A stretch of DNA of 61,642 nucleotides from Chiloscyllium plagiosum (GCF_004010195.1 NC_057729.1:4699452-4761093), one strand, 5' to 3'. Positions 7,397-60,329 are shown, counted from the stretch's first letter. Notes: generated by a model not told the origin, from the sequence alone. Translations and numbers: made by a program.

Positions 7397-7444
7397 ATGC
7401 TCAGACCAAGTATCCTGGCTTGCTGTGTTTTATGTCTGTTTCAG
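7397..7444 (+). CDS. CD40: CD40-like A exon 1 (signal peptide MLRPSILACCVLCLFQ)
   Basis: AAAATG start, hydrophobic 16 codons, CAG|GTAAGT phase-0 donor matching the phase-0 start of exon 2; resembles human CD40 exon 1 (MVRLPLQCVLWGCLLTA). Confidence 0.8.
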
Positions 7445-8516
7445 GTAAGTTTCAATGTGTTCAAAATTACTGCGATGGAGTTAGCTTGCTCCCTGTTGAA
7501 AACCTTTTTTTAAAGAAATGGGACAGGAATTTCTTTCTGCATTTGGCGAGTGAATGCGAGAGAATAACCACTGGGAAATAGACCGCGGGGGAATTGTTCA
7601 GTGACTAATGACTTGGAGGTGGACAAAGTTAAAAATCAGACAACGCCAGGTTAATAGTCCAACAGGTTTATTTGGCAGCAACACTTGAATGTTGGGGGTC
7701 TGATCAATAGGATAAGTGGGCTGAGGGCACAGAGACACTTTCAAATATAACATCACAGTTACCACTGAAACGTGGCTTAGAAGAGGGCAGGAAGAGCAAG
7801 TGGACATTTCTGGTGTACAGGGTTTTCAGAAGGGGATTGGCAGCTGAAAAATAGTTGCGGATGGGAGTGGGAGTGCTTAGGAGAGACAATCAATCAGGAC
7901 GGACGATGTCCTCAATATTGAGTAAGAACGGAACGCACCTACGGCTGGGAATATACCGTACATCCCCGGTCAGAGGGAGATAGAAAAGCAAACGTGTAAT
8001 CGAAGCAAAAACAGTAGTTGCTGGAAAAACTCAGCAGGCCTGGCAGCATCTGTGCAGAGAAATCAGAGTTAAGTTTTCAGATCCTCAGAACTGAAATGTG
8101 TCATGGGCTGAATGTTGCCGAGTGCAGAAACGATGAAGCGCTAATTGCAGGTTTCAGTCAGTTAGAGTTAGTGTGAAAGGTTATCGAGGGCACAGAATTC
8201 TTAAAAGACATTGGCGGATGGTGTTGTTTCCAACACAGCTCAACAATGGGAGGGGAATATTTTCCTCAATTTTGCGAAATGAAGACGGCATATGGCAGAA
8301 GTACCAGCACTTGCATGGTCATGATCACAATTTTGTTAGATGTAGACGTAACTGCGGGAGAGGGGCAAAGGTTAACCTAAACAAATAATAGGTGGCAATG
8401 CAAACACTGTGGATGCGGAGGCTGAGTGAGAACGATTGTTTACGTGATAAACTTAGAAAACAAATAACAAATGGTTCACCATGTTTGACCATTACCAGGC
8501 TAGGCTACTGAGAGCA

Positions 8517-9677
8517 AGTGAGGACTGCAAGGGCTGGAGCTCAGGAATGGGGGACGGGGAAGGGCCTGAGAGATAAATCGGCCAAGGTGGAAAATGAGGT
8601 GTTCTTCCTTCAGTCCTCAAATGGCTTGGATTTGGTGGTGGAGAAGGCTCAGGACTTGCGTGTCCTTGGCAGAGTGGGAGGGGGAGTTGAAGTGGTCGGC
8701 CACAGGGCGGTGGGGTTGTTTAGTGCGTGTGTCCCAGAGCTGTTTCCTGAAACACTCTGCGAGTTGCCATCCTGTCTCCCCAATGTAGAGGAGACCACAT
8801 CGGGAGCAATGGACACAGTAGAGAAGTGTTTGGATACTCAAGAAAATTTCTACTGGATGTGGAAGGATCTTTGGAACTTTGGATGGAAGTGAGGGAGGAG
8901 GTGTGAGCACATATTTTACACCTCTTGCAGTGCCAAGGGAAGGTGCCAGCAGTGGATGGTGGGGGGCATGGATCTAACAAGGGAGTCGCAAAGGGAATAG
9001 TCTCTGCTCAATACTGATGGTTGTGGGGAGGGAAATATATCCCTAGCGGTGGGGTCTGACTGTAGGTGGCGGAAATGGCAGAGGATAATGTGCTGTATCC
9101 GGAGATTGGTGGGTGGAAGGTGAGGACCCGGGGTTTCTAGTTTGTTGCGGGTGGAGGGATGGGGTTTGAGGGCAGAGGTGTGGCAAGTGGAGGAGATGTA
9201 CTGGAGGGCATCGTTGATCATGTAGGAGGGGAAATTGAGGTCTTTGAAATAGGAGGCCATTTGGGATGTGCTGAAGTGGAATTGCTCTTCCTGGGAGCAG
9301 ATATGGCGGAGGAGGAGGAAGTGGGAGTAAAGGATAGTGTTTTTACAGAGGGTTGGGGTGGGAGGACGTGTAATCCAGATAGCTGTGGGAGTCGGTGGGT
9401 TTAAAGTAAATGTCCTTGTTGAGTCGGTTACCAGAGATGGAGATGGGTCCAGGAAGGGGAGGGAGGTGTCTGAGATGGTCCAGGTGAACTTGAAGTCAGG
9501 GTGGAAAGTATTAGTGAAGTTGATGAATTGTTCAACTTCCTCATGGGAGCACGAGGTGATGCCAGTACAGTCATCAATGTAGTAGAGGAAAAGGTGGGGT
9601 ACGGTGCCAGAAACATTGACTTTCCTTATCCTTACATGCTGCCTGACTGGCTTTTCAAGCAACACACTTTTCAACAC
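8517..9677 (-). mobile_element. Penelope-like element (RT C-terminus plus GIY-YIG), frameshifted, with inverted pLTR piece and TSD
   Basis: YYIDDC..., FINFTNTFHPDFKFT, LPFLD, and YCVHCSRCGLLYIGET (GIY-YIG); TSD AGGCTAC(T/C)GAGAGCA at 8502-8516 and 9678-9692. Confidence 0.9.
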
Positions 9678-9809
9678 AGGCTACCGAGAGCACCAAGTGA
9701 ACCTAAAGCAGCTGCTTGCTATCCTCACTGGCTAAAGGTGAGGTGCCAGAGGACTGCAGGACTAGTCACTTTGTACTGTTGTTTAAAATGGAGAAAGGGA
9801 TCAGCCAAG

Positions 9810-10415
9810 TAATTTGGAGACCCTGCAGCCTTCTGGACTCAATATCAAGTTCAATAAATTTAGGGCTTGAACTCTCCCATGTCCTTAGCCCAACCCCCAT
9901 ACACCAGGCCTTGTTGTCACAGGGTCTGCCATTACACTCCCATTGTTAGCCACTAATATCCCCATTGATAATTATTAGATTAGATTCCCTACAGTGCGGA
10001 AACAGGCCCTTCGGCCCAACAAGTCCACACCGACCCTCCGAAGAGCAACTCACCCAGACCCATTCCCCTGCATTCACCCCTGACTAATGCACCTAACACT
10101 ATGGGCAATTTAAGCATGGGCCAATTCACCTGGCCTGCACATCTTTGGACTGTGGGAGGAAACCGGAGCACCTGGAGGAAACCCAGAGGAATCTGTTCCC
10201 ACTTATGGTTTACTCCTTACCCCTCCCCACCCCCCCTATCTTCTGCAAAAAAATGACATTTTTCTAGCTAACATCAGTTTTGAGGAAGGGTCACTCAACC
10301 CAAAACCTTAACTCTGATTTCTCTGCACAGATGCTGCCAGATCTGCTGAGCTTTTCCTCAAATTTGTGTTTTTGTTTCTGATTTACAGCATCTGCAGTTC
10401 TTTCAGTTTTTAACT
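9810..10415 (+). mobile_element. Penelope-like 3' end/pLTR interrupted by a SINE
   Basis: TLQPSGLNIKFNKF-like tail; degenerate hammerhead near 10276-10314; pLTR tail GATGCTGCCAGATCTGCTGAG. Confidence 0.65.
9975..10185 (-). mobile_element. HE1-type V-SINE, partial
   Basis: Reverse complement of the V-domain (GGTTTCCTCC.GGTGCTCCGGTTTCCTCCCACAGTCCAAAG) with (TAATC)n tail. Confidence 0.8.
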
Positions 10416-10454
10416 ACAACTCAATTGGTTAACCTTGTTGGTAGACACATTTAA

Positions 10455-11225
10455 TTGGAAAGAAATCTTGAGGCACAGTATAAGTTATCCTCAGAAAAAT
10501 GTGGATTTATCAAACACAGTTAACATGGATTTGTTAACAAAACATAATATTTGACTACTGCGTTTAGTTGTTTTTTGAGGAGGTGGTTCATTTGATATAG
10601 CTACCTAGATATTTATAAGGCTTTGATGACATCAGAAATGTAAAATCTCAAAGGATCAAGTTTAAGTTGGATCCAAAATTAGCTCAGTGGCTGGAGTGAA
10701 GGAGTCAATAGGTGTATTTGTGACGGGAAAGATGCTTCCAATGAAGATTAGCGCAAGATCCCTTGCTTTATTTGGTGACCAGTAATTTACATTGAATTGC
10801 AGGGGACCTTTTTAAAGATGATATAAAAAGTTGGCCTCGTATTTGATAATAAAAATGAAAGTTGTTGAGTGCAGGAAGATAGCAAGGGGCTGATCAGATG
10901 GATAAAAATGTGTCAAATATAATTCAGGCCAGAGAGGTGTGGCTACACGTTTGGGGAAAGCTAACAGGACCAAGGATATGCAGCAAATGACAGGATGCCA
11001 TAGATTGTCAGGTAACAGAGGGGCTTGGATTGCATAGTCACAAGCAGCAGGATAGATCGTTTGGGGCATACATATGGAATATATTATTCATTAATCAGGG
11101 CACTGAATATAAAGTCAGGAAGGTTGTACTAGAATTAGACATTAGAGAGAAAACCTGCTAGGCCATAGTGAAAGTATTGGAAACAATTCTGGTTACTGCT
11201 TTGCAGGAAGAATATGATTCCACTA
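10455..11225 (+). mobile_element. Old degenerate CR1 LINE fragment
   Basis: Remnants of HGFV, YLD..KAFD and DDxK motifs with many stops and frameshifts. Confidence 0.55.
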
Positions 11226-19470: not shown

Positions 19471-20110
19471 CTGGCTGTTGTGGTTCTGTTCGCCGAGCTG
19501 GAAATTTTTGTTGCAAACGTTTCGTCCCCTGTCTAGGTGACATCCTCAGTGCTTTGGAGCCTCCTGTGAAGCTCTTCTGTGGTGTTTCCTCCGGCATTTA
19601 TAGTGGCCTGTCCCTGCCGCTTCCGGTTGTCAGTTTCAGCTGTCCGCTGTAGTGGCCGGTATATTGGGTCCAGGTCGATGTGTTTGTTGATGCCTAAGAA
19701 AAAGACAACGGAACGAGGACATGCCACAACCCAAAGGACTAGCCACACTACCATACATCAGGAGCATTTCTGAACTGACAGCCAGACTACTGCGACCACT
19801 AGGACTTATAACAGCACACAAACCAACAGCCACAATCAGACAACAACTCACCAGAACAACTCCATCAACAAACACATCGACCTGGACCCAATATACCGGC
19901 CACTACAGCGGACAGCTGAAACTGACAACCGGAAGCGGCAGGGACAGGCCACTATAAATGCCGGAGGAAACACCACGGAAGCGCTTCACAGGAGGCTCCC
20001 AAGCACTGAGGATGTCACCTAGACAGGGGACGAAACGTTTGCAACAAAAATTTCCAGCTCGGCGAACAGAACCACAACAACGAGCACCCGAGCTACAAAT
20101 CTTCACCCAA
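19471..20110. mobile_element. Palindromic Penelope-derived insertion (217 bp inverted arms, 170 bp spacer)
   Basis: Arms 19476-19692 and 19863-20079; spacer encodes ATLPYIRSISELTARLLRPLGLITAHKP (PLE RT-to-endonuclease linker); TSD ACTTTATTAA at 19461-19470 and 20111-20120. Confidence 0.9.
20003..20042 (+). ncRNA. Minimal hammerhead ribozyme (mirror copy on - strand at 19513-19552)
   Basis: GCA-CTGAGGA-T-GTCACCT-AGAC-AGGGGAC-GAAA-CGTT-TGC. Confidence 0.75.
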
Positions 20111-27586: not shown

Positions 27587-27671
27587 GGTTGTCAGCTCGT
27601 GTCAGGCGACATCTGCAACACCAGGTCCCAGTATTGGAAGTTGGACAAGTGTTGCTCAAAGTGTCCACCTG
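27587..27671 (+). CDS. CD40: CD40-like A exon 2 (GCQLVSGDICNTRSQYWKLDKCCSKCPPG, CRD1 start)
   Basis: Pyrimidine tract...CTCAG acceptor; G|GTGAGT donor; 85 nt; TNFR CCxxCxPG motif. Confidence 0.95.
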
Positions 27672-30183: not shown

Positions 30184-30309
30184 GCACTTACATGAGCAGT
30201 GAATGTACAGAGGCTAAGGACTCAGAATGCCAACATTGTGGCTCCGGCCGTTATCAATCAGCGTGGAATACACTGGATCATTGCCAACTGCACAAAAGCT
30301 GTAACCCAA
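30184..30309 (+). CDS. CD40: CD40-like A exon 3 (TYMSSECTEAKDSECQHCGSGRYQSAWNTLDHCQLHKSCNP)
   Basis: TTTGCAG acceptor, GTAAGT donor, 126 nt, phase 1-1; aligns to human WNRETHCHQHKYCDPN. Confidence 0.97.
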
Positions 30310-31810: not shown

Positions 31811-31960
31811 ATGGAGGATTTGTGGTGGAAAAGCCTGGTACCACTACCTCAGACACCATCTGTCAGTGCCAGTTAGGAATGTACTGCATCAATACGGATT
31901 GTGAGATTTGTGAAGAAAACAAGGTGTGTGGACCTGGATATGGAGTCATTTACAAAGAAG
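31811..31960 (+). CDS. CD40: CD40-like A exon 4 (GGFVVEKPGTTTSDTICQCQLGMYCINTDCEICEENKVCGPGYGVIYKE)
   Basis: (CT)n...TTTAG acceptor, G|GTAAAC donor, 150 nt; cysteine spacing as in human CD40 CRD2-3. Confidence 0.97.
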
Positions 31961-32687: not shown

Positions 32688-32781
32688 ATCGGGGACTTTC
32701 AAGGCCAGTGTGTGAAAGATGTGAGCCTGGATATTTTTCAAATGTGTCCTCTAATATGGAGCCTTGCAGAAAATGGAGCGA
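32688..32781 (+). CDS. CD40: CD40-like A exon 5 (DRGLSRPVCERCEPGYFSNVSSNMEPCRKWS)
   Basis: T-rich...ATCAG acceptor, GTAAGT donor, 94 nt; FSNVSS motif as in human CD40. Not present in the ORF track. Confidence 0.97.
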
Positions 32782-33893: not shown

Positions 33894-33949
33894 TTGTGGG
33901 TCACTCCAAATGCTGGAAAATGGAACTGCAACAAAGGACATGAAATGTG
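33894..33949 (+). CDS. CD40: CD40-like A exon 6 (CGSLQMLENGTATKDMKC)
   Basis: TTTTAG acceptor, G|GTGAGT donor, 56 nt, phase 2-1; GTxxxDxxC motif ending CRD4. Confidence 0.95.
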
Positions 33950-35723: not shown

Positions 35724-35834
35724 GTATTTTAGAACCTCCATCAAAAGTGGGATTAATCACGGTGATCGTCTTCCTAAGTGTACTCCTCGCTATTATCATC
35801 TTGCTTTCCTTTATATGCATTGGAAGTAATAAGG
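35724..35834 (+). CDS. CD40: CD40-like A exon 7, transmembrane (ILEPPSKVGLITVIVFLSVLLAIIILLSFICIGSNK)
   Basis: TTTTCAG acceptor, G|GTAAGT donor, 111 nt, phase 1-1; about 25 hydrophobic residues. Confidence 0.93.
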
Positions 35835-36677: not shown

Positions 36678-36715
36678 AACATCGGACTAAAATAAGGGAC
36701 ATCATTAACAGGCTG
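36678..36715 (+). CDS. CD40: CD40-like A exon 8 (EHRTKIRDIINRL, juxtamembrane)
   Basis: Pyrimidine tract...TTTCAG, CTG|GTAAGT, 38 nt, phase 1-0 links exons 7 and 9 in frame. Confidence 0.85.
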
Positions 36716-36753
36716 GTAAGTTTGGTTTTGTACACAATGTTAGTTGCTGTAGT

Positions 36754-37795: not shown

Positions 37796-37918
37796 TGCCC
37801 TGGCAATATGAGGAAGCCAGTCCAGGAACATGTGAAGACTGAGAATGGAAGGATATTAGCCACAGCAGGAGATGAGGACAACAGCCCTGAGGATGGGACT
37901 GAGCTGCTCCCTGTGTAA
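37796..37918 (+). CDS. CD40: CD40-like A exon 9 coding part (CPGNMRKPVQEHVKTENGRILATAGDEDNSPEDGTELLPV*)
   Basis: Poly-T...AAG acceptor; PVQE TRAF2/3-type motif; EDGxE like human QEDGKE; TAA at 37916-37918; total CDS 831 nt = 276 aa. Confidence 0.9.
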   Translation, partial: CPGNMRKPVQEHVKTENGRILATAGDEDNSPEDGTELLPV

Positions 37919-38647
37919 AGTGCTGCTATAAGGACTGTTCAAACAAGCACCAATGTAAGGAGGCAGTGGACATTGTGATGATGCTGATGGCTTTGTGTTT
38001 TTTGTGGGGTTTCTTCGAGTTCAGCATCACTCTTGGCATGGTCAAAGACCAGAATGGGCATCCAGCTATGGACCTACTAATCCCAGCATCAAAGATTTCT
38101 GCATGGAACAACTGACACAGGCAAGATGCCTCAAAACCCTCTTCGGTGCAGTATCCTACGACAATATATTATAATCCGCCAACTCAGTGACAGAGCATGG
38201 ACAGAGCAGCTTCAGCTAAAGTACCTTTTCTGATTTGATATAAAGATGAAATGTTTTCTGATCCAGAGCTCTTATAGTCAGATTGCTGCTTCCTTCTCAG
38301 AGCAGCAAAGTTGCATTCTGTTCCATCCCTCCCGTTAATCTCCAATCATGGGTCTCTGTCCTGAACTGTCTGAAAGCCGATCATTTTTCCTACACATCAG
38401 TGCCTGTAAATGCTAAATTCCCAACACTGTGCTTAGTCTGTAAATTTTCTTTGTAATTTGTTTGGAATTATGGACAGTTTCCGACCCTTACAGTTTTTTC
38501 TACACTAGAGGCCCCATACTAAGGCCATTGTCCCTTGTGTATAACTCCAATGATGCCCTTGTATCTCTCCCTGATGGTTCTTATGAAACAATGTATATTT
38601 TTATAAATGTACAGGTGTGATTTAAGCATGATGACTTTGTAAAAATG

Positions 38648-38653
38648 AATAAA
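38648..38653 (+). terminator. Candidate polyadenylation signal of CD40-like A
   Basis: AATAAA about 730 nt after the stop, in an AT-rich 3' UTR context. Confidence 0.5.
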
Positions 38654-39803
38654 ATGAATAACTGACTGTCATTTAATGAAGTCAAGTTATTTCCTTGAAT
38701 GCAAGCCAGTGTTTGTAATGAGGGAGGGTCACTGACAGCAATTGATCCAACTGATTGCAATATTGAGGGCCGAAGGACCTGTACTGAGCAGTTATGTTCT
38801 GTGAGTGTCTTCACTATTCATCTGTTCTAAGCTTTAGTGATTGTTTTTATAACCTTAGCTCTTCTCGTCTTTCTGTCTTGCCCCTGAGTTTTGTTAATAT
38901 TCAGTTCCATAAAATAACATATCTTTACATTTAATTAGTACCTTTCACAAGCTTAGGATGTTCCAAAGTGCTTTCCATGTACTTTCAAAGCCCAATCACC
39001 ATTGTAAATGCAGAAGCCAACTCTGCACTGCAAGATTCCACAAAGGATAATAAGATACGTTCAAAAGAAAGAATTTCATTTATATTGTACCACTTGTGAC
39101 CACCAGCCTTCTCAAAGCACTTTACAGTCAATGGAGTGCTTTTGAAGTATAACTATTGTAATCTAGAAAAAATGGCAATCAATTTGTGCACAGCAAGCTC
39201 CCACAATCAGCAATTTGATAATGGCCAAAGTGATCAGATTTTGTGATGTTAATTGAGGAACAAATATTGGCCAGGGAAACAGGAAATAATTCCATCTGAT
39301 CCTTTTTTGAGATTTCTCTATACCAACCTAGAAGGACAGGGATGACTCAGTTTAATATTTCTTCTAGAAGATGGGTCATCATTTAATTTCCAATGCACTA
39401 TTAAAAAAAAGATTTAATGACATTAACACTGCGATGTAGTGACTGCTATTTTTAAAATCTGTGCCATAAACATGACTTAAGAAACCAGGGGAATGGGTAT
39501 TGGTGGGAAGCAACACTTTTAACACTGGTGACAATCAGAAGGATGGGGTTAGTCACAAACCTATTTAGACAAATGCAGCTCAATTTATTTTTAGGAGTCT
39601 ATTCCCATATTAAAGTGTTTAAACTAAATGGAATGCATGTTGTTTCTGGCAAGTACAGTTTGGCAAATTTGTGCAGCACCTCTGTATTCATTTGTTTCTC
39701 CAGGACACAAACTTAGAGTCTTTGTTACCTCAATCAGACCCATTCCATTTTGAAGGCAACAATCACAGTGTAATTGCAGGCTCCAGCCACTAGCTGGCTC
39801 TGT

Positions 39804-42059: not shown

Positions 42060-42290
42060 AGGAATGGGACGCCTCCACGGCCTCTCTGATTCCGCCTTCC
42101 GCTCGATAAGCCAGTCCTTCCCGGATCGTGATTGGGAATATCTCGGAGCCGCAGTCCAGGCCTCCCTCTCATCCCCAAAGCCAAACCAAATCCTTACTGG
42201 GAGTGAGCTTGGGGCGAACGCCAGCGACTGAGATGCGACCCGCACAAAGTCAGGGATCAGACCATTCCGGCTGGGAACTCGGATGCCATG
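42060..42290 (+). promoter_or_regulatory. CpG-enriched promoter/5' UTR of CD40-like B
   Basis: Local CpG rise; GAS/ETS-like TTCCCGGAT 42118-42126; ATTGG 42131-42135; imperfect kB-like GGGAATATCT 42134-42143. Confidence 0.45.
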
Positions 42291-42294
42291 CAGA

Positions 42295-42339
42295 ATGAAA
42301 GTGCGGCGCTACCTCTGGCTGGTGGTTCAGGCGATTCAG
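42295..42339 (+). CDS. CD40: CD40-like B probable exon 1 (MKVRRYLWLVVQAIQ; in-frame upstream ATG at 42283)
   Basis: Basic then hydrophobic signal-like N-terminus ending CAG at phase 0 like copy A; donor CAG|GTTATT is weak. Confidence 0.55.
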
Positions 42340-44807: not shown

Positions 44808-45050
44808 AGGAGAGAATTAAGGCTGCTGATCATTATCACCTGTTTTATGATATCATCCAAAATTTAAATTGCCCACTGCTCTTTCACACTTCCAAACTTT
44901 TTAAAAAAAGCGAGTCCACATTGTGTTCCCTCCCTTGCCCATTATTATAATTTCGGATGCCCATGCCATAATGGTGTGGCTGAGCAGTCTTCGACAGATG
45001 CACTGCTAACAATCCTCCTCCTTGGTATCAAAGCTACATTCCTGATACCA

Positions 45051-46950: not shown

Positions 46951-47904
46951 AAATGTAACGTCATTGTAAAACAGAGGCACCTACTAGAGATATGTCTTGT
47001 GAGCTGCATTCTAGTTGGTTTATTTTTTTAAAGCTTTTCTGGCATTGTGTCAACTTCCATGAAGTCAGCTGTTGCCAATTTTCTAATTGCCTGCATTCCT
47101 CTTGTTCATATCTTGAGACCAGCCTGCTCCCCCATGTCCCTGTGTCCACTATTGCTTCCAGCTTCCACCCTCAGTGGCAAACGGTCACTTGTTGCAAATA
47201 TCCTGGTTCTGCACCCATCCATCACATAGAATTCAATCATCATTTCATATTGCACATCAGTTATTATCATCCCCATTGATGTAGTAGTTTTGGCTAGGGT
47301 GAAGATGAGTCAGAAATTTGTGGGCTCAGATCACACACATGAGGCTGATAAATCACTGTAGTGATGAGGGAGCTGGGCATTGTCAGAGGCACTGCCTTTG
47401 GGATGATTCATTTAACTGAGATCCAAGTTCCTCTTTCAGGTGTTTGTGAAAGATTCCATGGCACTATTCTGAGGAAGAACATGGTCCTCACTGACATCTG
47501 CAACTCATCCAGCATTATTACTAAAACAGATTAGCTGATCATCCAGTTTATTGCTTTTTGTCATTGTCCACAACTTGACTGCAGTGTCTTCTACATTTCT
47601 ATAGCAGTTGCATTTTAGATGTGTGTGAGGTGAGTTGAGACATTCTGAAAGCTGCTGTATAAACGCAAGTTCAATCATGCCAGCTATGTTAATTTGTGAA
47701 CTATGACTTAATGTTTATTAATCTATTGTGCAACAGGGTGTGGTAACCATGCTGTTTAATAAAGGTGTGATGAGGGAGAAGAATCATTTCTGTTCTTGGC
47801 CCACAGAGAATCCCACCCCCATAAAGGGTTATCCCCTGAGTAGCACCAATCTCTGGGCTGGTGTAAAGGACACAGCAGAAAGTGCTGAGGCCTTAAATGT
47901 GTCG

Positions 47905-49110
47905 AACATGCTATTGAGCCCTGAAGGCTGCAGGATCCCCAAATGGAAGTTGAGATGCTGTTGATCCAACTTGCGCTGAGCTTCATTGGAGCACTGCAGC
48001 AAGCTTGAGAAAGAGACGTTGGCCAGGGAATAGGGGGGATACGTTGAAGTGGCAGGCAACTGGAAGCTCAGGTCATTTTTGTGGATAGAACGAAGATGTT
48101 CTGCAAAATGGTTGTCCAATCCACGCTTCATTTTCCCAGTGTACAGGAGACCACATTGTGAGCAGTGAATATAGTAGACTAGATTGACTGAAATGCAGAA
48201 AAAGCGCTGCTTCATCGGGAAGGTGTGTCTGGGGCGTTTTGTTGGTGAGGACGGAGGAAATAAACAGGCAGGTATTACAACTTCTATGATGGCAAGGGAA
48301 GGTGATGATGTGGAGAGGTGTTGGGAGGGGAGAAGGAGTGGACTAGAGTGTTGTGGAGACATTAGTCCCCGTGGAAGGCTACTGGAGGAGGGGAGGGGAA
48401 TATGTGTCTGGTCACAGCATTTTAATACACTTGGATAAATGGTGGCTTATAATCCTTTGGCAACAGTGGCTGGTAGGTTGGGAAGTGAAGACAGGGGAAC
48501 CCTATTGCTGTTGATGGAGGGAAGAGATGGGGTGGGGGCAAAGTGTGCGAGTTGGGTCGGACATGATGAAAAGCACTGTTGATCATGGTGGTTGGGATTC
48601 CTCAGCTGAGGAAAAATTTATGAGGCCTCCCCCACCGGAAGGTGGCATCATTAGAGATACCATGGAGGTGGAGAAACTGGGAGAAATGGGATGGAGACCT
48701 TACACAAAGCAAGATTTAGGGATGTATATTCCAGGGAACTTGGAATCAATGGGTTTGTGATGGATGTCAATGACAAGCTATGCCCAGAAATGGAAACAAG
48801 AGATATCAAGGAAGGGAAGGGAGGAGTCCGGAGGTGGACCAAGTGAATGTGAGAGCAGGGTGAAAATTGGAAGCAAAGTTGATTAACTTCTCCAGTTCAG
48901 AATGAGAGAGGGAAGGAGCACCGATGATGTCATTGCTGTGCTGGAGTAACAGTTGTGGGTGTATGCCTGGGATTAGGACTGGAACAAGGAATGTTCCATG
49001 TATCCCACACAGAGACAGACATAACTGGGGCCATGCAGGTACCCATGGCCACCCCTCTGACCTGAAGAAAGTGAGAGGAGTTAAAGCAGAAGTTGTTCAA
49101 AGTGAGGATG
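47905..49110 (-). mobile_element. Penelope-like element, old and degenerate (RT part plus GIY-YIG)
   Basis: NLVYYIHCSQCGLLYTGKMKR.L..HF.EH and HLNFHLGILQPSGLN in ORF 47829-48362. Confidence 0.85.
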
Positions 49111-50046
49111 AGCTTGATAAAAGTTCTCTCTCTTCAGGTACTGTCCCTTTAATTTTTCAAAACCACCATCATCCTCGCCTTCTCTGAAATCCTTGACACA
49201 GTTAACCTATGGTTCTCCTTCAAGATAACCCCTTCACTGCCTAACTCACTGACACTGCTCTTGCTTCATTATATCAGTTTGTTGCAATGATTTCTCAACT
49301 CTGCAGTGTCTCTCTGGAGAACTCCAAGATTCCCGTGATTTTATGAGGTTTCCCAGTATCCCATACATGTGGGGTCAGCATTCTTGCCTATCAGACCTAA
49401 CTCTGCCTCTCTATGTCACCTATCTCGATGTATCTGTTGTCTCCATGCTGCCAGAATGCTTGCCAACACGCCGCCTTGGAAAATTGGTCACTATGTCCGG
49501 TTAAAAGACAAGAGAAGCCAAAACCACTGTCTTTCTTACTTGTCACCAACCCAGGATCTTCTCTGATGAAGCAACCCTCTTGCACACTGTGATAGTAGGT
49601 GATGTATACAATATGTATAGAACACTCAGATCCTGTGCAGGAGCATTAGCAGTTCTGAAAGCCTCTCACTTCCTTCTGATATGAGTGTGTAACCACTGCA
49701 AGATCAGGCTGTGAGATAAGTGATCACTTGCAAACTCCACTTCTCCCACTGATATAATCACCAAGAGGGAAGCAAACACAGCAGTTAACATCACTAAATT
49801 ATTTGAAATGTTTGAGTTTGGAGATCAGCTTCAGGAGACATTGGAACACATTGGTATGTTCAGTAACAAGAAATTACATAAAGCAGCACAGAAACATCCC
49901 CATTAGTTTTCTTGTGGGAAGCTGGGGTTAGCTGTGGTGATCAGCCACATGCCTGTGGGTCCACCGTTGTAGAAACAATATATACAAGAACTATTTCCTC
50001 TTCCTCAACCTTTGCAAATGTTAATATGTATCAAATATTAAATGGC

Positions 50047-50272
50047 AGAGAGGGTAGCATTGATGCCTCACAGTGTCAGGGACCTGGGTTCGATTCCAGT
50101 CTCTGTGCACACTCGACACAGACAATCACCATTCTCCCCGTGTCTGCGTGGGTTTCCACCTGGTGCTCCGATTTCCTCCCACAATCCAAAGTTGTGCAGA
50201 TTAGGGTGAATTGGCTGTGCTAAATTGTCCATACTGTCTAGAGATGTGCAGGCTAGGTGGATTAGCCATGAT
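50047..50272 (+). mobile_element. V-SINE, older copy
   Basis: GGTTCGATTCC B box and V-domain. Confidence 0.7.
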
Positions 50273-50331
50273 AAATGGAGGGTGACAAGGATAGACAGGA
50301 ATATACAGTGATAAGATCAGCAATGATGTCA

Positions 50332-50649
50332 TTTAGATTACTTACAGTGTGGAAACAGGCCCTTCGGCCCAACAAGTCCACACCGACCCGCCGAAGCGCA
50401 ACCCACCCAGACCCATTCCCCTTTATTTTCACCCCTTCACCTAACACTACGGGTAATTTAGCATGGCCAATTCACCTAACCTGCACATTTTTGGACTGTA
50501 GGAGGAAACCGGAGCACCCGGAAGAAACCTGCACAGACATAGGGAGAATGTGCACACTTGACACAGACAGTCACCAGAGACTGGAATTGAACCCGGGTCT
50601 CTGGCGCTGTGAGGCAAGTACTAACCACTGTGCCACCGTGCCGCCCACG
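50332..50649 (-). mobile_element. HE1-type V-SINE, full length
   Basis: Minus strand starts GTGGGCGGCACGGTGGCACAGTGGTTAG; V-domain and tail present. Confidence 0.9.
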
Positions 50650-50794
50650 AATGGTGGAATTGGCTTGAGGGGCTGAATGGCCCTATCTATGCTCCTAATT
50701 CATGTGTTTATGAATAACCAGCGCAATCTTTTAGCAAGAATTAATTGGCATAATCATTTAAAAAAGGAATAATGGGGTCTAAATTTAACATTTT

Positions 50795-51080
50795 TTTTAA
50801 TTCATTCATAAAATGTGGATATTGCTGGCCAGACCAGCATTTATTACCCATCCCTAATTGCCCAGAGAGCAATTAAGCATCAGTCACATTGGTGTGGATC
50901 TGGAATCACATGTAGGTAGGTTGCCTATCCTAAAGAACGGTCATCATTAGACTCTTAATTCCAGACTTTTGCAGAATTCAAATTCTGCCATGGTTGGATT
51001 TGAACCCGCGTCCCCAGAACATTACCTGGGTCTCTGGATTAAGAATCCAGTGATAATACCACTAGGTCATCGCCTCTCCT
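50795..51080 (-). mobile_element. SINE of a second family
   Basis: Minus-strand tRNA-like head (GGTTCAAATCC) and tail shared with ~11250-11370, ~13415-13690, ~25280-25470 and 31320-31710. Confidence 0.55.
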
Positions 51081-52114
51081 GTACCTATTTGTGGTGTCTG
51101 TTTTATGGATGCAAATTGAATGTGGTGCTAAACACTTGAGGATGGCAGAGGTCTGATCTGCATTGTCTGCTCGCTGGAAAATTCATTGGTGCTTTGCTTC
51201 ATTTTCAAGACAGTTCTTGTGTCATTCCAGAAGTGGATTGTTAAACTTGTTTAAAAGCAAAGTCCCACAGATGGAAATCTGAAACAAATACAGGGAATGC
51301 TGGAGAAACTCAGCAGGTCTGTGGCGAGAGAAAGAGAGCAGCCTAACTGCAGTCTGTAAAGGGTAATGATAGGCTGCTTAAACAAGGCCCCAACCTTTTC
51401 ATTGTCAGAAGCTTCCTTTAACACTCTTTCATCTCCAATGTCTCTCAGTTTCCAGTATGACTTCGTACGGGATAGAATCGTAAAAGGACTCGAGTGGGAG
51501 ACCTGTTTGCCCCCACAATTAGTTATTCTGTTGTGGCCTATGATAGGCTTAGTTCAAACCCATCATTTTCTGTGCAATTCTCACACCACAGGGGAATACA
51601 GCAAGTTTGGACATCCAAGAAAAATTTAAATAAGTCATTGTAGGGAAAAAACTTTTTTTTAGGATTGTTGTGTCTTCGAAGCCATTTAAAAGCATAAAAA
51701 CAGGAGAAGATCATTCCTTCAGCCTGCTGTGAAATTTACTAAGATCGTGGCTGGTCTGATTGTAACTTTTAGTCTACATTCTCACCTGCACCTTTTGCCC
51801 ACTTGCTCAATAAGTTATCTATCTGTCTCTGCCTCGGAGATATTCAAGGACTGTCTTTCCACCACCTTTTCAAAAGACAGTCCCAAAGATTTAAGACCCG
51901 CAGAGAAAGAATCTCTGTTTGAACTGGGTGATGCCGGATTTCTAAACCCCTTGTTCTAGATTCTTCCTTTAGAGGGAACACCCTGTCCAAATCTATGCTG
52001 TCAAGACCCCTCAGTGAAATAATTAAGCCTTTAATGACTTTAAAATCCTCTGCCTTTTTCATTGGATTTCTGTTGGGTTTACTTGCTTTGAGAAAATAGA
52101 ATGTATTTTAGGGC

Positions 52115-53085
52115 CTTGGCAGTGTTGTAGAACAGAGAGACCTAGGGATTCAGGTGCAAAACTCTTTGAAGTTTGCGTCACGTGTAGACAGGGTGGTTAA
52201 GAAGGCAAAAACCGAAAAAAACTGCCTCAGTTTGAGGAAGGGTCACTTGACCTGAAACGTTAAGTCTGATTTCCCTCCACAGATGCTGCCAGACCTGCTG
52301 AGCTGGTTAAGAAAGTGTTTAGCACGCTTGCCTTTATTGCTCAGACCTTTGGGTATAGGAATTGGGACTTCATATTGAGGTTGTACAGGGTATGGCAGTG
52401 CTGGTGTTGGACTGGGGTGGACAAGATTAAATGTCACACGACACCAAATTATAGTCCAACAGGTTCATTTGAAATCACAATATTTCCGAGCACTGCTCCT
52501 TCGTCAGTTTGAGGATGTACAGGACATCGGTGAGGCCTCTTCTGGAGTACTGTGTGCAGTTCTGGTCGCCCTGTTATAGGAAGGATATTATTAAACTGGA
52601 GTGGCTTCAGAAAAGATTTACCAGGACGTTACCAGGACTGGAGGGTTTGAGTTATAAGGAGAGGCTGGATAGGCTTGGACTTTTTTCACTAGAGCATAGG
52701 AGGTTGAGGGGTGATCTTATAGAGGTTTATAAAATCAGGTGGGGCACAGATAAAGTGAATGGCAAGTGTCTTTTCCCTTGGGTGGGGGAGTTCAAAACCA
52801 GAGGGCATATTTTTAAAGTTGAGAGGATAAAGATTTAACAAAGATACAAGGGGCAACCTTTTACACAGAGAGTAATTTGTGTGTGGGGTGAACCTCCAGA
52901 GGAAGTGTTGGATGCGGGTACAGTTAGAACATTTAAAAGGCATTTGGATAAATTCACAAATAGAAAGTGCTTTGAGGGATAAGTGTCAAGCCCAGGCAGG
53001 TGGGACAAGTTTAGTTTTGGATTAGGGTCGCCATGGACTAGTTGGACCGAAAGGTCTGTTTCTGTGCTGTGTGACTATGACTCTA
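52115..53085 (+). mobile_element. CR1 LINE 3' portion with two nested Penelope pLTR fragments
   Basis: ORF 52509-52838 (VRPLLEYCVQFWSPCYRKDI...); nested inserts with TSDs GGTTAAGAA (52195-52203/52305-52313) and TTGAGG(T/A)TGTACAGG (52375-52389/52509-52523). Confidence 0.9.
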
Positions 53086-53467
53086 TTGGGTGCTATGATG
53101 GCAATGAGAAAGCTATCACTCATCCACAATTGGCACTTTCCTGATACAACAGCGGTCTGACAGACCGAATGGTCTGCTGTGCACTGTATCTATTCTATGG
53201 TTCTATGACTTTGAGTTGATTGGAAAGTTTCTTTGACCATTGCTCATACAACCAATTTTGATCAATTTCTGATATATTTACAGCTAAAAAAATAAAAGTG
53301 CGCAAATAAAATTACGTCTGCACGCTTAATTTCTCCTATGGTTTTTTTTCTCCTGGATTTGCTCATCCCATTGTCCTGGAGATTAATCTTTCATTCCCGC
53401 AGAACACAGTGTAGAATGAGCGGAACGCTTTATAATTGTAATTCATTGTTTGCCTTTCTGTTTTCAG

Positions 53468-53552
53468 CTGTACCACTGTGAGTCTGCCGCCAAATGTAAC
53501 AATATCACACAGTACTCATTGTCTTCCCGCTGCTGTGCCAAGTGTCCACCGG
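53468..53552 (+). CDS. CD40: CD40-like B exon 2 (LYHCESAAKCNNITQYSLSSRCCAKCPPG)
   Basis: TTTTCAG acceptor, G|GTAAGT donor, 85 nt as in copy A; CCxKCPPG. Confidence 0.95.
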
Positions 53553-56056
53553 GTAAGTACAGGGTTAATGATGGAGAATACTGAGGGGCTGGAGAGAGAA
53601 CTGGAATATAAACTGGGCGACTGCTTGACATTTTGGAATGGAATCAGGAAGCATGTCTTCACACACAGTCCAATAAAAATCAAGAATACTGTCCACTGTA
53701 GGGCTGGGGCTTTCAAGATATGGATCAGAGCTTCCTGAAGTGGGATATAGGGACCCCACGTGGGGTCATGTGCTGAATCTATGGAGTTACAAACTCTGAG
53801 GTACGAGCACAGCTCTAACCAAGTGTATAACTCTCCTTCCTAACTCTGAAAGCTTACAATGAGAGGTTGTGACAATTTCCAAGCCTTGAAATGGAGTTAC
53901 AGAGTGGAAAAAGCTTGAGAAGTGCTGATTCTGATCAGTAGAGCTAGTTGTAGGTAGAGTGATGCTTAATAGAATGGCCAAGAGGCTGAATAGCCTCGTC
54001 CTCTTTCTTTAACTAAAAAGGTTGCTTGCATTGATATGAGATAACTTTCACAATTTGATTTTCACAATTATACCTTATTCTGTGAAAAAGTATGGATCAA
54101 TGGCATTGCATAGGATCCAAGTTATTGACTGGTTTACCCATTATGTATTGTCCATCGGGGAGTTCCAGGATGAGTAGTTTGTTGGTGTCTGAATAAGTAG
54201 AACTGATCTGAGTGTTCAGGTAACAAATTAAGAACTAAATTAGAAGAACATGACAAGGGATACTCAGCTCAGAAGAAACTTCGAGCAGGAGTGGGGTCAG
54301 ATTCAGGCTTGATGGTCAATCTCGAGCAGTGCATGGGAGATTAGTAAATCTACAGTTCAGGTGTGATAACCTTCATAGTGAGTTAACCTGTCGCCAGTCA
54401 TAGCCTCGACTCATGACTCCACTTTGAGTCTCAACCCTCGTTTTGGGAAGCTATGATCCATATCTTGAAAACCCCAGCCCTTTACTGGACAGTATTCTCG
54501 ATTTCTATTGGTCTGTGCATGAGGACATGCCTCCTGATTCCATTCCCAAATGGCCAGATGTACACGTGAAGAAGAGAGTTGCCTCAAGTACTTAAAAACT
54601 GATCGTACCTATCTAACCTTTAGCACCCTCAAGGCAAGAGACAGGAAGGGACAGAAATCTAAGAATAAATTGAAAGCAGATTAGGCTTTGCAGTTGAGTG
54701 AGTGAGCAACTGAGCTGAGGAGGTCAGGAATTTCCGAGATTGCATTTCTAAGTCAGTTGCTGACCTGCACTGACTTTACTTTGTCTCTGTTGAGGTTGTT
54801 ATGGTTTGCTAATAGTGATCTCTGGGTCAGGAAGTATCTGACTGGCCCTGGTTCCAGTGCTTGCTGGTTGGGCAGTATATGTCTTGTCAGGCTGATACTT
54901 TGTCCCCCTCCCTTTGGGTTTACTGTATTTTTCTACAGTCTCCACTTTCTTCCCTCCATATTGATAGGATCATTTCTTGCCGTAATGGTACTACTGTCTG
55001 GTCAATGTTCTCATCAGCTGCTCTCCCTTTTTACCATCTTCAGATATCTCAACACTCACCTTTAGTTTTATTGAAATATACAGTAGGTTCATCCCTACAA
55101 GTCTCTAGCTGTGGCTCAGTGGGTAGTATCTTTGCCTCTGAGTCAGATGGTTGTGACTTCATGACCCACTTAAGCACAGAACGATGCTGGCACCTTTGTA
55201 CAATACTCAGGGAGTAGAGTTATGTCAAAGGAGCATATTTCAGAAGTGACATTAAATTTTTCTGTAGGGACCTTCTCATGTAGATACAAAAGATTAGCCA
55301 ATTGTATCGTGAAGAAGAACTGAGCATGATTCTGGCCATTTTTTTGTCACTCAATAATCAAAATAAATTATCTTGTGTCTTATTGTAAAAGGGTGCCCTT
55401 TGTCACAGCTTTTTATCTTGAACTTATCAGGACAATTTGCAAAAAACATCCCAATTCAATAAGAAAATCAACATTTATATTTAAGAAAGGACAGTACTGC
55501 TTTGTTGGCAAGTGCAGTCTGATTGGTAGAGATGTTGCCATGGAGATTGCAGAGTCAATGATGTTTGACAGTTAACTGACAGGCTTTGTTTACATTTTAA
55601 TTCAGACAGGTTGACTTTGATTGGTCAGGGCATTGCTTTGAAAAATGGAACAGTGAAAGGCTATTTAGATGAGTTGAAACAGACGCAGTGTTTCTTACAA
55701 TACACTAATGTCTACTTTCTATACTCTTTCATTTGGACCACCTTGAGGAAGGTGTGACTATAAATGCAAGTTCTTTCTTCTCAGGCATAGCAGTTTAATC
55801 TTTTATCTCTTCCTATTACCTTTACATTCTTCTATAAGGCGGATTTTGAATGTTTTCTACATTGGTTCAAATTGCCCCAAAATTAGTGTGGAAAAACCTG
55901 CTAAGAGGTTTATTTCTATATAAATGACCAAAGATTTGTTTGCATCAGACACTATCAAAATCTATTCAGTTCTGTAGGAAAAGGTGGAGGATTTGAGCCA
56001 GATTTGAGAGTTGCATTCTTGTGCAATAAATTTGTATTGTGGTATTTATCTTGCAG

Positions 56057-56182
56057 GTACCTATTTGAGCAGTAAATGCACAATACTGAAAGACACTGAG
56101 TGCAAGCCCTGTGAAGAGGGACTGTATCAGTCAAAGTGGAACTTGGCTGATCACTGTCAGCGGCACACATACTGTGATCCAA
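56057..56182 (+). CDS. CD40: CD40-like B exon 3 (TYLSSKCTILKDTECKPCEEGLYQSKWNLADHCQRHTYCDP)
   Basis: TTGCAG acceptor, GTAGGT donor, 126 nt; 25/42 aa identical to copy A by manual count. Confidence 0.97.
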
Positions 56183-56814
56183 GTAGGTCCAAATTATTTT
56201 CCCTAGTTTTCTTTCTGCTTACATTTCTGGTAGGGTTTTACTGATGTATGCAATTGTGTAAGTTCGTGTGTGAATATGCATTTGTGTGTTTCTGTGCATA
56301 TGCACAAGTGTATGCATATGCTCCTGTGTCAGTGTGCACACCTGTGTAGGTGTGCTCCTATACTTGGGTGCCAGTGTGTGTGCAAGTGTGTGTGTGTATG
56401 TATGTATACACACGCATGCCTGTGCATTTTTATAATACAAGGCTAGCAAGTCAAACCAAATCAGTCTCATTAACACTGGATCTGCAAAAAAGTGCCCATT
56501 TGTTTTTAACCAGATTTTACAAATGACAGACTTTGGATATTAAGTTTATACAAAAATTAACAATTTATTATTAATAATGTAACTTGAGCAGAACACAGAT
56601 AAGTAACAAGTTAATCTAATTAATATCTATGATTTAAAGTATATTTTTCTTATCATAAATCCACTAACACACAGACGACAGATAGACATGGTTTGGGGAT
56701 GAATTAAAAAGAAAAGAAATGAATTTTAATTTGCCAAATAAGTAAACCGTTTCCAATAATGGATACTAGGCCTCCATGAAAACCTTAGACAATAGATTGT
56801 CCACAGGAACTGAA

Positions 56815-57345
56815 TAAGAACTAGGGGCAGAAGTAGGGAATTCATCCCCTTAAGCCTGTTCTGCCATTTAATACAACTATGGCTGATCTCATCTTGGCCC
56901 TAACTCCACTTTCCTGCCCTTCAGCCTCTTACTGTTTTAAAATCTGTCCATCTTCTTAAACTTATTCCATGTTCTGGCATCCTAAAGGGTAATGAGTTCC
57001 ACAATTCACAACTGTTTTAGATAAGTCATTTCTTCTCATTCCTATTCTAAATCCGCTACTCATTATCCTAAAACTATGACCCCTTGTTCCAGATAGCCCT
57101 ACCTGAAGAAACATCCTCACTTTGTTTACTTTGTCAATCCACTTTGGCATCTTGTAAACTGCGCTTAGATCTCCTGTCATTTATCTAAATTCCAGACAGT
57201 ATAGGTCTAAACTGCTCAGTCTCTCTTCATAACACAACCCCCTCATATCTGGAATCAATCTAGTGATTCTCTTCTGAACTGTCTCCAATGCAACCACGCT
57301 TCCCCCTTGAGTAAGCATACCATAATTGTACGCAGTACTCCAGCT
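56815..57345 (-). mobile_element. CR1 3' portion
   Basis: GDLSAVYKM..IDKV...TRGHSFRI in ORF 56962-57180. Confidence 0.7.
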
Positions 57346-57875
57346 TGAATTCAATGTCACCAGTTAATACAAACAGTTTCAGAAGACGTCTAGAAATATT
57401 TTAAAATTATTTCTTACAAACTGGGCCTTTCCTTAGAACATTCAACAATTTTATAACTGAATAGAAAACTGGAAAGAGCAAAACACAGCAATCATCTCTG
57501 AAAGTTTTCAAATAATCACTCTTCTACTAAAAACAAATCAGAACTGGTGGTTCTCTCTCCTTCCTTTCCTTTTAAGTCAGCATTCTTTATGGGTGAGTGG
57601 TTGGCACCTGTTCTCCCCGATTGACAAATTCAACATTGAACTGCTGCCGGCCTGGAACATAGAAATTGCTCAGTGCCAATTTGTTCACAGTGCCTTTGGC
57701 ACAGTAATTAAGTTGCATCGTCTTCCAGGCCAGTACCCAACTACAAACATCTGTCCTTGTTCTCTTCCTGTTTAAAACAAGCTGCTGTTCAAAGTTCAAC
57801 TCTTAATCTGACCTTACATTTCCAAACCAAAAATAAAGAGGAAATAAAAGAAAACCGGTGAGAGCCCCTAGAATA

Positions 57876-58175
57876 CATGTACATGTTCCTGTGCTTTTGT
57901 GACTATGTATGTGCATTTGTGCATGCATCTGGTCGTGTGTGTGTATGTGTGCGCGCGCTCATCTGGTTGTGTGTGTGTGTGTGTGTGTGGCACCAGTGTG
58001 TGTGCATGTATGTGCACCTGTGTATGTGCATGTGTGTTTGTGTCTGTTCATGTGTGCATGCAAGTGTTCCTGTGTGTCTGTGCACCAGTGTATGCGTATG
58101 TTTCTGTGTGCATACATTCATGTGTACCATGTTTTTGTGTGTATGTGCATGTGTTTGTTCGTGTGTGTGTGTGAG
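57876..58175. repeat. Degenerate (TG)n/(TGCA) microsatellite; similar tract at 56260-56430
   Basis: Alternating purine-pyrimidine tract; explains the C/V/M-rich ORFs. Confidence 0.9.
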
Positions 58176-58846
58176 AACCTATTGGCCAAGCCAGCTTTAT
58201 GGTTTGATGAAATTGTGCTGCACACAAAATGGAGAGTATTTCCTGTCAGTCACAATTGACTCTGAATAAATATAGAACTGTTCTTTGGGGGAAGGGAGGA
58301 GGGAAGTGAGATCGTGGCCAAATTAAATCCCCAACAGAATTTGGAGAGCTTTGTATTTGAAATGGATGTTGTATTATTAATGCAAATTCAGCATTCTGTT
58401 GGACCACTAAATAAGAGGGATATTTCTTCATCCACAGTGCAAGCAAAACAACAAATTTGCCAGAATTATTTTTATTTGCCATTTAAAATATGCCATCGCT
58501 TCCCAATGAGATACTACCTGAATAAAGAAAAATTATCATAGCCCTACAGGGGTCAAGATAAAACAATGGCCTGTGTTGATTAAGTCAGGTTTGGGCTATT
58601 TTATGACAGGGCCTGCAGTTTAACAGTTTCCCAAAGTGTATTCACTTCATACAAGAGTGCACTGCTTGACTTATAGGAAGTGTCGAAGTGAAACCGTAAG
58701 CCAGTTTCCAAACAGGACGGAAATCTTAAAAATACAGGCACACAATCCCTGTCTCTTTTGCGAGGTGCACAGTCTTATCACTGTAACCAAGAGGGAGATC
58801 TCTGCAATCACAAATATTCTTACACTCTGCCTTTTCCTATCTTCAG

Positions 58847-58993
58847 ATGGAGGATTTGTGACCGAGTCGCCTGGCGACACCTTGACCAATGCTGTGTGTT
58901 TGTGTGCGATAGGGAAGCACTGCATCAATGAGGACTGTGAAATGTGTGTGGAGGACAAGATTTGTGAGCCTGGTTCTGGAGTAACTAAACCAG
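58847..58993 (+). CDS. CD40: CD40-like B exon 4 (GGFVTESPGDTLTNAVCLCAIGKHCINEDCEMCVEDKICEPGSGVTKP)
   Basis: CTTCAG acceptor, CAG|GTAAAA donor, 147 nt. Confidence 0.97.
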
Positions 58994-59099
58994 GTAAAAA
59001 CATAAGCATCTGTAAATATCTCAGATTCATAATGTATAGTTTGTGGTATTATTACTGCCTTTGTCGTTTGCTGATGTGCTAATGTGGTTTGTTTGCCAG

Positions 59100-59196
59100 C
59101 GGATCGCAAACACAAGGACACAGAGTGTGAGGAATGTAAACATGGTTATTACTCAAATGTCTCTTCGGCTGTAGAGCTCTGTTCGAAATGGACAAA
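59100..59196 (+). CDS. CD40: CD40-like B exon 5 (ADRKHKDTECEECKHGYYSNVSSAVELCSKWT)
   Basis: TTTGCCAG acceptor after a 106 nt intron, GTAAGT donor, 97 nt; SNVSSAxExC as in human CD40. Confidence 0.95.
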
Positions 59197-59722
59197 GTAA
59201 GTAACCCAGGTTAACTGGGGGGAGTGGGAAACTTTAGGTTGAATGGGGTAGGTCAGTATCCATGGATTAAATGGGCAGGATTTCAAGCTGCCTCTGGCTT
59301 TACATCGACCCTGTATCTTTGCTGAACCACTGTTTGACTCTCTTGTTTGATTGCCTTGTCACAAGCAATGTCTTTACTCTTTTCCATGTTGATGGATCTT
59401 CCTAAGATGGCCCCAACTTTTGCTTTGTCAAATCTAAGGGGCTCAGATCTGGTACAAAGCTGATTTAATCATCCAACACTAGGTCTGGCTAGATCACATA
59501 TATACGTCACTCCCTCTGACAAAACTGCTCAAAAGCTCGAAATTACTCTGGAGAGAAATTAGTTCTCTGACCTTTTTTGTTCTCCTCTCCCAACAGTCTG
59601 TTTAACCATGCCCAGGCATTGTTGGCAAGATGTGTATTTACAGCACATCACTTGTTAGCCTTGAACCACTGCTGTTCTGATGGTGAAGGCATTCAACTGA
59701 TACTATGAGAGCGCGGTCAGAG

Positions 59723-59845
59723 GTCACACGACACCATGTTATAGTCCAACAGGTTTGTTTGAAATCACAAGCTTTTGGAGTGCCGTTCTTCATCAGGTGT
59801 CGTGTGACTTCTAGCCTTGTCCACTTCAGTGCAACGACATATCAC
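59723..59845. mobile_element. Small degenerate palindromic Penelope pLTR insertion
   Basis: GTCACACGACACC / GGTGTCGTGTGAC inverted pair; flanks CGGTCAGAG / CGGTTAGAG. Confidence 0.6.
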
Positions 59846-60276
59846 GGTTAGAGAGAAATTTCAGGACTTTGATAGTAACAATATGTGATATTTTGTGACC
59901 TGGAGGGAGTTCAGAAGTGGCGCTGTTTCCAAGTGGCTGTTGTCCTTCACCTACAAAGTGATTAGGTCGTGGGTATGCAATAATCTGATCAGGCCGACAT
60001 AAAAAGCATAAAACATAAGACTAGCCTGAGAGGACTTTTTGCCTCAAAAAAAGGGCAGTTAAACAGGAGATGAGCTTGGATGGGCTGCAACTAATTGGTG
60101 CCCATCTGATTAAATTGATACCTTGATATTCCACATGTGTTCCTTGGTGTAGGTTGGCATCAGTGAACAAAGTAAATGGGATATTTATTACCTGAAATTG
60201 GGAGCTCTGATTATACACAGTCTTTGGTACTTTCTGTGCTCTGATTCTCTGACTACCAACATCCCTTTGCTTTCAG

Positions 60277-60329
60277 TTGTGGGTCACGCGGAGAGCTGAA
60301 ACCAGGCAATGCAACAAGTGATGTGAAAT
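60277..60329 (+). CDS. CD40: CD40-like B exon 6 (CGSRGELKPGNATSDVK...); downstream exons not found in the window
   Basis: TTTCAG|TTGTGGGTCA start identical to copy A exon 6; best donor AAAT|GTAAGT gives 53 nt, phase 2-1. Confidence 0.88.

Follow-up and report, generated by a model that had tools for sequence, protein, structure and literature searches.

Two tandem CD40-like receptor genes of the shark Chiloscyllium plagiosum and their place in a likely ancient gene trio of cartilaginous fishes

CD40 and its ligand CD40L provide a core T-cell help signal for antibody maturation. Whether a shark may possess more than one CD40 is a question raised by a stretch of 61,642 nucleotides (nt) from Chiloscyllium plagiosum (GCF_004010195.1, NC_057729.1:4699452-4761093; the whole stretch is called the window, and positions are counted from its first letter). 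It contains two CD40-like genes, here designated A and B, for which a first interpretation of the DNA without database searches (the sequence-only reading) had proposed an old tandem duplication with both copies retained. The duplication now appears older and larger than proposed. In sharks, A and B are followed by a third neighbouring copy, paralog C, located after B outside the window, and two of the three genes are also present in chimaera. We regard A and B as intact TNF-receptor genes of this trio, which likely arose by local duplication from a single CD40 and whose members were likely kept by dividing work; the probability of this reading is estimated at roughly 0.6. The cluster is an ancient lineage-specific expansion of a known receptor, already contained in public annotation, and not a new kind of system.

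Structure and transcription of genes A and B

Both genes are located head to tail on the plus strand and, as had been noted from the sequence, their frames are open without stops or frameshifts, with introns of the GT-AG type. Gene A is complete. Its nine coding exons (7397 to 37918, GT-AG at every intron) specify 276 amino acids (aa) comprising a signal peptide, four cysteine-rich domains (CRDs), the membrane span encoded by exon 7 and a tail of 59 residues, and the spliced gene equals RefSeq XP_043566089.1 letter for letter. For gene B, six exons are present (from 42283 or 42295 to 60329) before the window ends; the 184 residues they specify recur unchanged in the 308-aa RefSeq protein XP_043566090.1, which includes membrane span and tail. 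Since both spliced models are letter-identical to independent RefSeq proteins, the structures of A and B are above chance. The proposal had been made dependent on further exons of gene B downstream, and a full tail is indeed found in nine of nine full-length B proteins examined. With CRDs and one membrane span, the latter for B by way of the identical RefSeq protein, both products show the features of TNFRSF members without a death domain, and all their PDB matches are TNFRSF-type. Pfam comparisons of single exons yielded only matches below the cut-off.

Comparison of the two genes revealed common architecture with considerable divergence. Exons 2 and 3 measure 85 and 126 nt in both, and exons 4 and 5 add up to 244 nt (150+94 in A, 147+97 in B), exactly as first described. 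Identity in exon 3, put earlier at about 60%, is 79/126 nt (63%) and 24/41 aa, and the proteins share about 54% of their residues. Each of the 20 cysteines in the primate CD40 ectodomain has its counterpart in A and in B. That the introns lack similarity holds for introns 2 to 5, where no same-strand single-copy match was detected; in intron 1, three matches of 44-81 bp were found that look like interspersed repeats. Introns 2 and 5 are nearly equal in length in A and B (2512/2504 and 1112/1080 nt) with no alignable single-copy sequence, which is probably a coincidence.

Transcription was assessed by comparing four public sequencing runs (X1, X2, X6 and X7) with positions 27400-42700, a part that begins after exon 1 of gene A and includes, among the exons of gene B, exon 1 only. 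X6, a single-cell run, is the only one recorded as RNA; X1 is RNA by guess only, the type of X2 is unrecorded, and X7 had no match there and is hence uninformative. At least six of the seven gene A junctions within this part were found in these runs at the predicted GT-AG sites, and at least five of the seven in raw reads of X6, with one to four reads each; the junction of exons 3 and 4 was not among the 15 junction rows listed. Just 5' of an AATAAA, X6 forms a pile of reads in one direction (depth 35, 38131-38641), and contig pieces from X1 extend to 38664. In 240 nt of the 3' untranslated region (UTR; 38434-38668) about seven differences between X6 reads and the window were counted, two of them common to X1; the X6 reads represent a divergent haplotype.

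For gene B, exon 1 was the only good signal-peptide candidate in the scan, and its assignment is probable. A contig of 1690 nt from X1 matches 42133-42339 without differences and ends at the exon 1 donor. The run search over 53400-60400 listed no recorded-RNA run; X1 contained a 0.09 share of the words there, which is not counted as evidence. A protein atlas gave TNFRSF5 clusters for B, which is a lead only.

The third gene and the relationship to CD40 and RANK

The existence of C became apparent from a fused sawshark model containing B followed by another CD40-like unit. A search with this unit gave 18 matches (15 cartilaginous-fish proteins), among them chiPu_0010265, and the consecutive locus tags chiPu_0010263, chiPu_0010264 and chiPu_0010265 on one scaffold correspond to A, B and C. 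The order A-B-C is deduced from these tags and the fused model. In C. plagiosum, C is XP_043566091.1. The three RefSeq models carry one generic name, 'TNFRSF5-like', by which three orthology groups, their age and their tails are not distinguished.

Sharks yielded all three genes, whereas the searches returned A and C from rays and B and C from chimaera. Full-length orthologs of A and B are contained in several independent shark assemblies. The chimaera B-type protein, Callorhinchus milii XP_007910556.1, was detected by an exhaustive profile search, and it is encoded together with the C-type protein on one scaffold of 15,161,263 bp that also carries DcR3. It has 19 of the 20 cysteines; one CRD3 cysteine is missing with the adjoining PGxGV stretch, either through genuine divergence or through an error in the model. 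B was not found in any ray, in searches of which the word-index one also missed the chimaera B and in which a library at 50% identity can hide members, and the failure to find A in chimaera is subject to the same limits. In Pristis and Mobula, RefSeq numbering runs unbroken from C to A, which is only suggestive of an absence of B. As B and C are both present in chimaera, their split likely predates that of chimaera and elasmobranchs, given in PMC6238376 as about 420 million years (Myr) ago, and at least two of the three copies are probably over 400 million years old.

A maximum-likelihood tree was calculated from 75 ectodomains, hand-picked from about 310 fetched proteins so that each species contributed a single sequence for every paralog; isoforms and incomplete models were left out, and some outgroup rows took their labels from their place in the tree. 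The 11 rows of A, 9 of B and 12 of C each form one clade, and together they form one clade with support of 100/98, or 97/92 in a tree of 53 full-length rows. In these trees A and B share one clade, and neither is drawn alone to another TNFRSF clade, an outcome that would have spoken against the sequence-only reading. CD40, RANK and the trio constitute a group (99/97) apart from LTBR, HVEM, TNFR2, CD30, OPG and DcR3. B alone as the CD40 ortholog was rejected in the approximately unbiased (AU) test (p-AU 0.002), as was C alone (p-AU 0.030). Because A, B and C are one clade and these two placements are rejected, the duplications most likely occurred within cartilaginous fishes, after their split from bony vertebrates. 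Ectodomain identities are 63-73% within the paralog groups and 43-48% between them.

Regarding the order of duplications, A,(B,C) was obtained in both trees (96/86 and 94/86). A two-residue deletion in the last CRD, present in A (11/11) and B (8/8) and in none of ten C, favours (A,B),C, which is not rejected by the AU test (p 0.30 and 0.50); nor is an origin of A as an elasmobranch-only duplicate of B (p 0.10).

Is CD40 the proper name for the cluster? Exon phases and the cysteine scaffold, on which the name had been based, do not decide this, as a RANK-clade protein and an LTBR also possess 20 of 20 cysteines. An ectodomain profile of bony CD40 scored above that of RANK for 11/11 A, 9/9 B and 11/12 C rows, by small margins. 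The best PDB match of A and B is CD40 (127-128 bits, E about 1e-36) versus 109-112 bits for RANK. Together with the short tails, the tail motif of B and C and the linkage to DcR3, these matches make CD40 the favoured name; human CD40 and DcR3 are both on 20q13. Of the statement that B is the copy nearer to human CD40 in places, the quoted motifs HCQRHTYCDPN, SNVSSAxExC and DTEC are confirmed; as a whole protein B is not meaningfully closer, with 41.7% identity to primate CD40 against 40.5% for A, and 128 against 127 bits on PDB CD40.

Compared with known receptors, A and B resemble CD40 (human PDB 3qd6 and 7p3i; macaque) in all 20 cysteines, type I topology, a short tail and the lack of a death domain, and gene A has nine coding exons, the number in human CD40. 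They differ from it in the two-residue deletion, by which the last CRD (exon 6 of gene A) is shortened relative to C and most CD40s, and in that CD40 is a single gene where sharks have three in tandem. RANK (TNFRSF11A; PDB 3me2 and 4giq), the second-best PDB match of A and B, has the same CRD layout and is a sister group in the tree, but it possesses a long tail with a motif of its own. LTBR (TNFRSF3) has a QExGK motif near the C-terminus (5/5), yet it lies outside the clade of CD40, RANK and the trio, and a separate sawshark TNFRSF3-like protein groups with it.

Cytoplasmic tails, ligands and alternative explanations

The clearest difference found among A, B and C resides in the TRAF-docking motifs of their cytoplasmic tails. 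Tail lengths range from 56 to 104 aa (A 56-61, B 86-95), similar to bony CD40 (54-107) and far from RANK (329-446). Of the A tails, 13/14 contain P[VI]QE (as [PSAT]x[QE]E), never with a final T, and none of the 14 contains QExGK; These tails also have the word ENG, which certain CD40s of ray-finned fish share. Exon 9 of gene A conforms to this pattern, with PVQE and ENG present and QExGK absent. B tails have P[IV]PE[ST] at the place of PVQET and end in QExGKE[SY]HxPxQE (9/9), while C tails show the module QExG[KN]DS[HR] (11/11) and a longer extension. The strict pattern QExG[KN][ED][SYD][HR] is found in B (9/9), C (11/11) and 13 of 19 bony CD40s, and in none of ten RANK tails. The full PxQx[TSD] pattern is restricted to one of 34 shark-type tails (A 0/14, B 1/9, C 0/11) versus 12/19 in bony CD40, so that the CD40 set of PVQET plus QEDGKES is as a rule on no single shark copy. 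PVQET is described in PMC9655775 as the TRAF site of human CD40.

PxExx followed by an aromatic or acidic residue is the membrane-proximal TRAF6 consensus. It was found in 0/34 A, B and C tails and in 18/19 bony CD40s, acidic tails being able to match it by chance. IIVVY-type motifs of RANK (4/10 RANK tails by the pattern used) and IYIY-type motifs of LTBR were detected in none of the 34. On a tail profile of bony CD40 the B tails reach 25-40 bits; a tail profile of RANK gives them no more than 3.2. Within each paralog group the tails are strongly conserved across sharks, rays or chimaera, and between groups they differ. At the C-terminus of gene A (37901-37918), T[EQ]L[LM]x[VI] is conserved in all 14 orthologs shown and could be a PDZ-type or sorting signal. 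Several annotated B isoforms from three species, and a single C isoform, omit the membrane exon in frame, which would result in soluble receptors with the tail retained.

In the ectodomain, the loop around primate residues 74-86 differs as well. Y82 is kept in B (8/9) and in neither A (0/11) nor C (0/12); D84 is kept in B (8/9) and lost in A (11/11); N86 is kept in B (9/9). In primate CD40 these residues are contacts for CD40L.

Judged by their motifs, the copies apparently each retain their own portion of a signalling tail that is united in one gene in humans, which suggests sub-functionalisation with TRAF signalling divided among the tails. Members of the TNFRSF are brought together by a trimeric ligand, and TRAF adaptors are recruited to short motifs of the tail. 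Each copy would then be a membrane receptor of type I that is clustered by a trimeric ligand of the TNF family and signals through TRAF adaptors without a death domain. Gene A, with only the upstream P[VI]QE, may employ mainly TRAF2-type adaptors and give a weaker or narrower signal, acting as a partner of B. B, with the C-terminal CD40 module and the YCDPN loop, would be the likeliest working receptor for T-cell CD40L, and C would add a longer extension to the QExG[KN]DS[HR] module it has kept.

Several observations weigh against this reading. A, B and C are joined to CD40 in the best trees with support of only 78/49 and 70/52, and the AU test rejects neither the trio with RANK (p-AU 0.36 and 0.44) nor A with RANK (p-AU 0.096). 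No cartilaginous-fish RANK appeared in the hit sets, so the identity of the trio does not follow by elimination. On PDB, C is nearly tied between RANK (107 bits) and CD40 (106 bits). A tails obtain only 2-12 bits on the CD40 tail profile, with the RANK profile higher in 5/14, and the chimaera B tail scores 26.5 on the LTBR profile versus 25.4 on that of CD40. The incomplete occurrence of PxQx[TSD] in bony CD40 itself implies that loss of a motif need not mean divided function. For A versus B, the ratio of nonsynonymous to synonymous divergence (dN/dS) is about 0.26 with a bootstrap upper bound of 0.44 and thus not near 1, but at a dS of 1.44, near saturation, the value is rough. The unsettled order of CD40, RANK and the trio, and a mean ectodomain identity of A of 0.376 to RANK versus 0.370 to CD40, would suit a cluster whose ancestor was RANK or a gene that existed before CD40 and RANK separated, with a likeness to CD40 only via a shortened tail. 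Such an origin is improbable in view of tails several times shorter than those of RANK without its IIVVY-type motif, the C-terminal motif of CD40 type that B and C possess, the N that A and B share with CD40 at primate position 86 (where 7/8 RANK have G), the absence of a RANK-type gap at position 114, and the scaffold shared by chimaera B, chimaera C and DcR3. A pseudogene among the copies, or an assembly artefact, is refuted at the sequence level by the open frames, the orthologs in independent assemblies, the spliced reads of A and the moderate identity of A and B; the cut of gene B by the window end, with reads examined over its exon 1 only, leaves this a negligible chance.

The differences among the copies could also have been shaped by ligands, one receptor binding CD40L and the others the orphans TNFSF-Fish3 and TNFSF-Fish4/TNFSF11B. 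As reported by Marin 2020 (PMC7674686), Callorhinchus has one TNFSF5 (CD40L), one TNFSF-Fish3 and one TNFSF-Fish4, and CD40L was not detected in the whale shark assembly then available. Synteny led the same source to suggest Fish3 and Fish4 as TNFSF5 duplicates, and the different fixation of the 74-86 loop in A, B and C is in line with such a split. Both orphans are, however, also described there for bony fish, whose CD40s form one clade in our tree; the ligand duplications are therefore older than the receptor duplications, and one-to-one co-evolution of receptors and ligands is weakened. Fish4 is moreover most like RANKL and has been renamed TNFSF11B (Marin 2025, PMC11762692). Going by these reports, CD40L genes have not multiplied along with the receptors, though two orphan relatives exist, and a split by ligand is doubtful. 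Largely redundant CD40L receptors, kept for dosage or expression sites with tails differing by drift, would be in keeping with the cysteine scaffold and E117 retained in all three and with the failure to find B in rays and A in chimaera, which suggests that single copies are dispensable; conservation of tails and ectodomains within the groups and their divergence between groups make this unlikely. The favoured reading, a trio duplicated from CD40 and dividing its work, might be extended to a three-receptor CD40 system at least 420 Myr old, with copies that differ in ligand (CD40L, Fish3, TNFSF11B/Fish4) and TRAF output, signal with no canonical TRAF6 site and serve as markers of distinct lineages of B cells or antigen-presenting cells (such as IgM versus IgNAR cells), one copy being lost in rays. 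This extension is speculative and, as a whole, rather doubtful too.

If sharks do have three long-diverged CD40 genes, studies of B-cell help and single-cell labels such as 'CD40-like' must name the copy. In the trio the CD40 tail would be dissected by nature, its upstream and C-terminal TRAF modules being distributed over different genes, and the two orphan TNF ligands gain candidate receptors. According to PMC10529500, the main text of which does not mention the CD40 receptor, antibody maturation in sharks proceeds without germinal centres, and CD40L-positive cells resembling T follicular helper cells are present. A literature search found no paper describing multiple shark CD40 genes, although subscription journals or supplements may hold one; CD40 was not found in the main text of the genome papers of bamboo shark (PMC7677710) and elephant shark (PMC3964593) or in one supplement of the latter.

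Feature coordinates and neighbouring sequence

Table 1. Exons and untranslated regions of genes A and B in the window
Feature	Position	Strand	Evidence or remark
Gene A exon 1 (signal peptide, 48 nt coding)	7397..7444	+	ATG and GT donor; spliced model = RefSeq XP_043566089.1
Gene A exon 2 (85 nt, CRD1)	27587..27671	+	junction to exon 3 in runs X6, X2
Gene A exon 3 (126 nt)	30184..30309	+	junction from exon 2; weak TNFR_c6 match below cut-off
Gene A exon 4 (150 nt)	31811..31960	+	junction to exon 5 in X1, X6 (4 reads, 4 starts), X2
Gene A exon 5 (94 nt)	32688..32781	+	spliced model and read junctions
Gene A exon 6 (56 nt; last CRD)	33894..33949	+	model and read junctions
Gene A exon 7 (transmembrane span, 111 nt)	35724..35834	+	model and read junctions
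Gene A exon 8 (38 nt, juxtamembrane)	36678..36715	+	model and read junctions
Gene A exon 9, coding part to stop	37796..37918	+	junction from exon 8 in X1, X2
Gene A 3' UTR; poly(A) signal AATAAA at 38648	37919..38668	+	read pile, contig pieces; exact 3' end inferred
Gene B exon 1 (5' UTR and signal peptide; ATG 42283 or 42295)	42133..42339	+	CpG-rich patch; starts RefSeq model
Gene B exon 2 (85 nt)	53468..53552	+	spliced model = RefSeq
Gene B exon 3 (126 nt; YCDPN as in primate CD40)	56057..56182	+	spliced model = RefSeq
Gene B exon 4 (147 nt)	58847..58993	+	spliced model = RefSeq
Gene B exon 5 (97 nt)	59100..59196	+	spliced model = RefSeq
Gene B exon 6 (53 nt)	60277..60329	+	donor inside last cysteine codon; later exons past window end

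The donor of exon 6 is located 3 nt earlier in gene B than in gene A. Upstream of gene A, a CpG island is present at 2800-3400 with a strong minus-strand splice donor near 3075-3080 and with YY1-like and NRF1-like words. A neighbouring gene, transcribed in the direction away from gene A, probably has its promoter and first exon here; in human, NCOA5 is located head to head with CD40. Intron 1 of gene A contains an inverted repeat of 217 bp with 98.6% identity (19476-19692 with 19863-20079). Between the two genes a direct duplication of 290 bp is found at 39802-40327, and a minisatellite with a 38-bp unit follows directly after exon 1 of gene B at 42741-43229.

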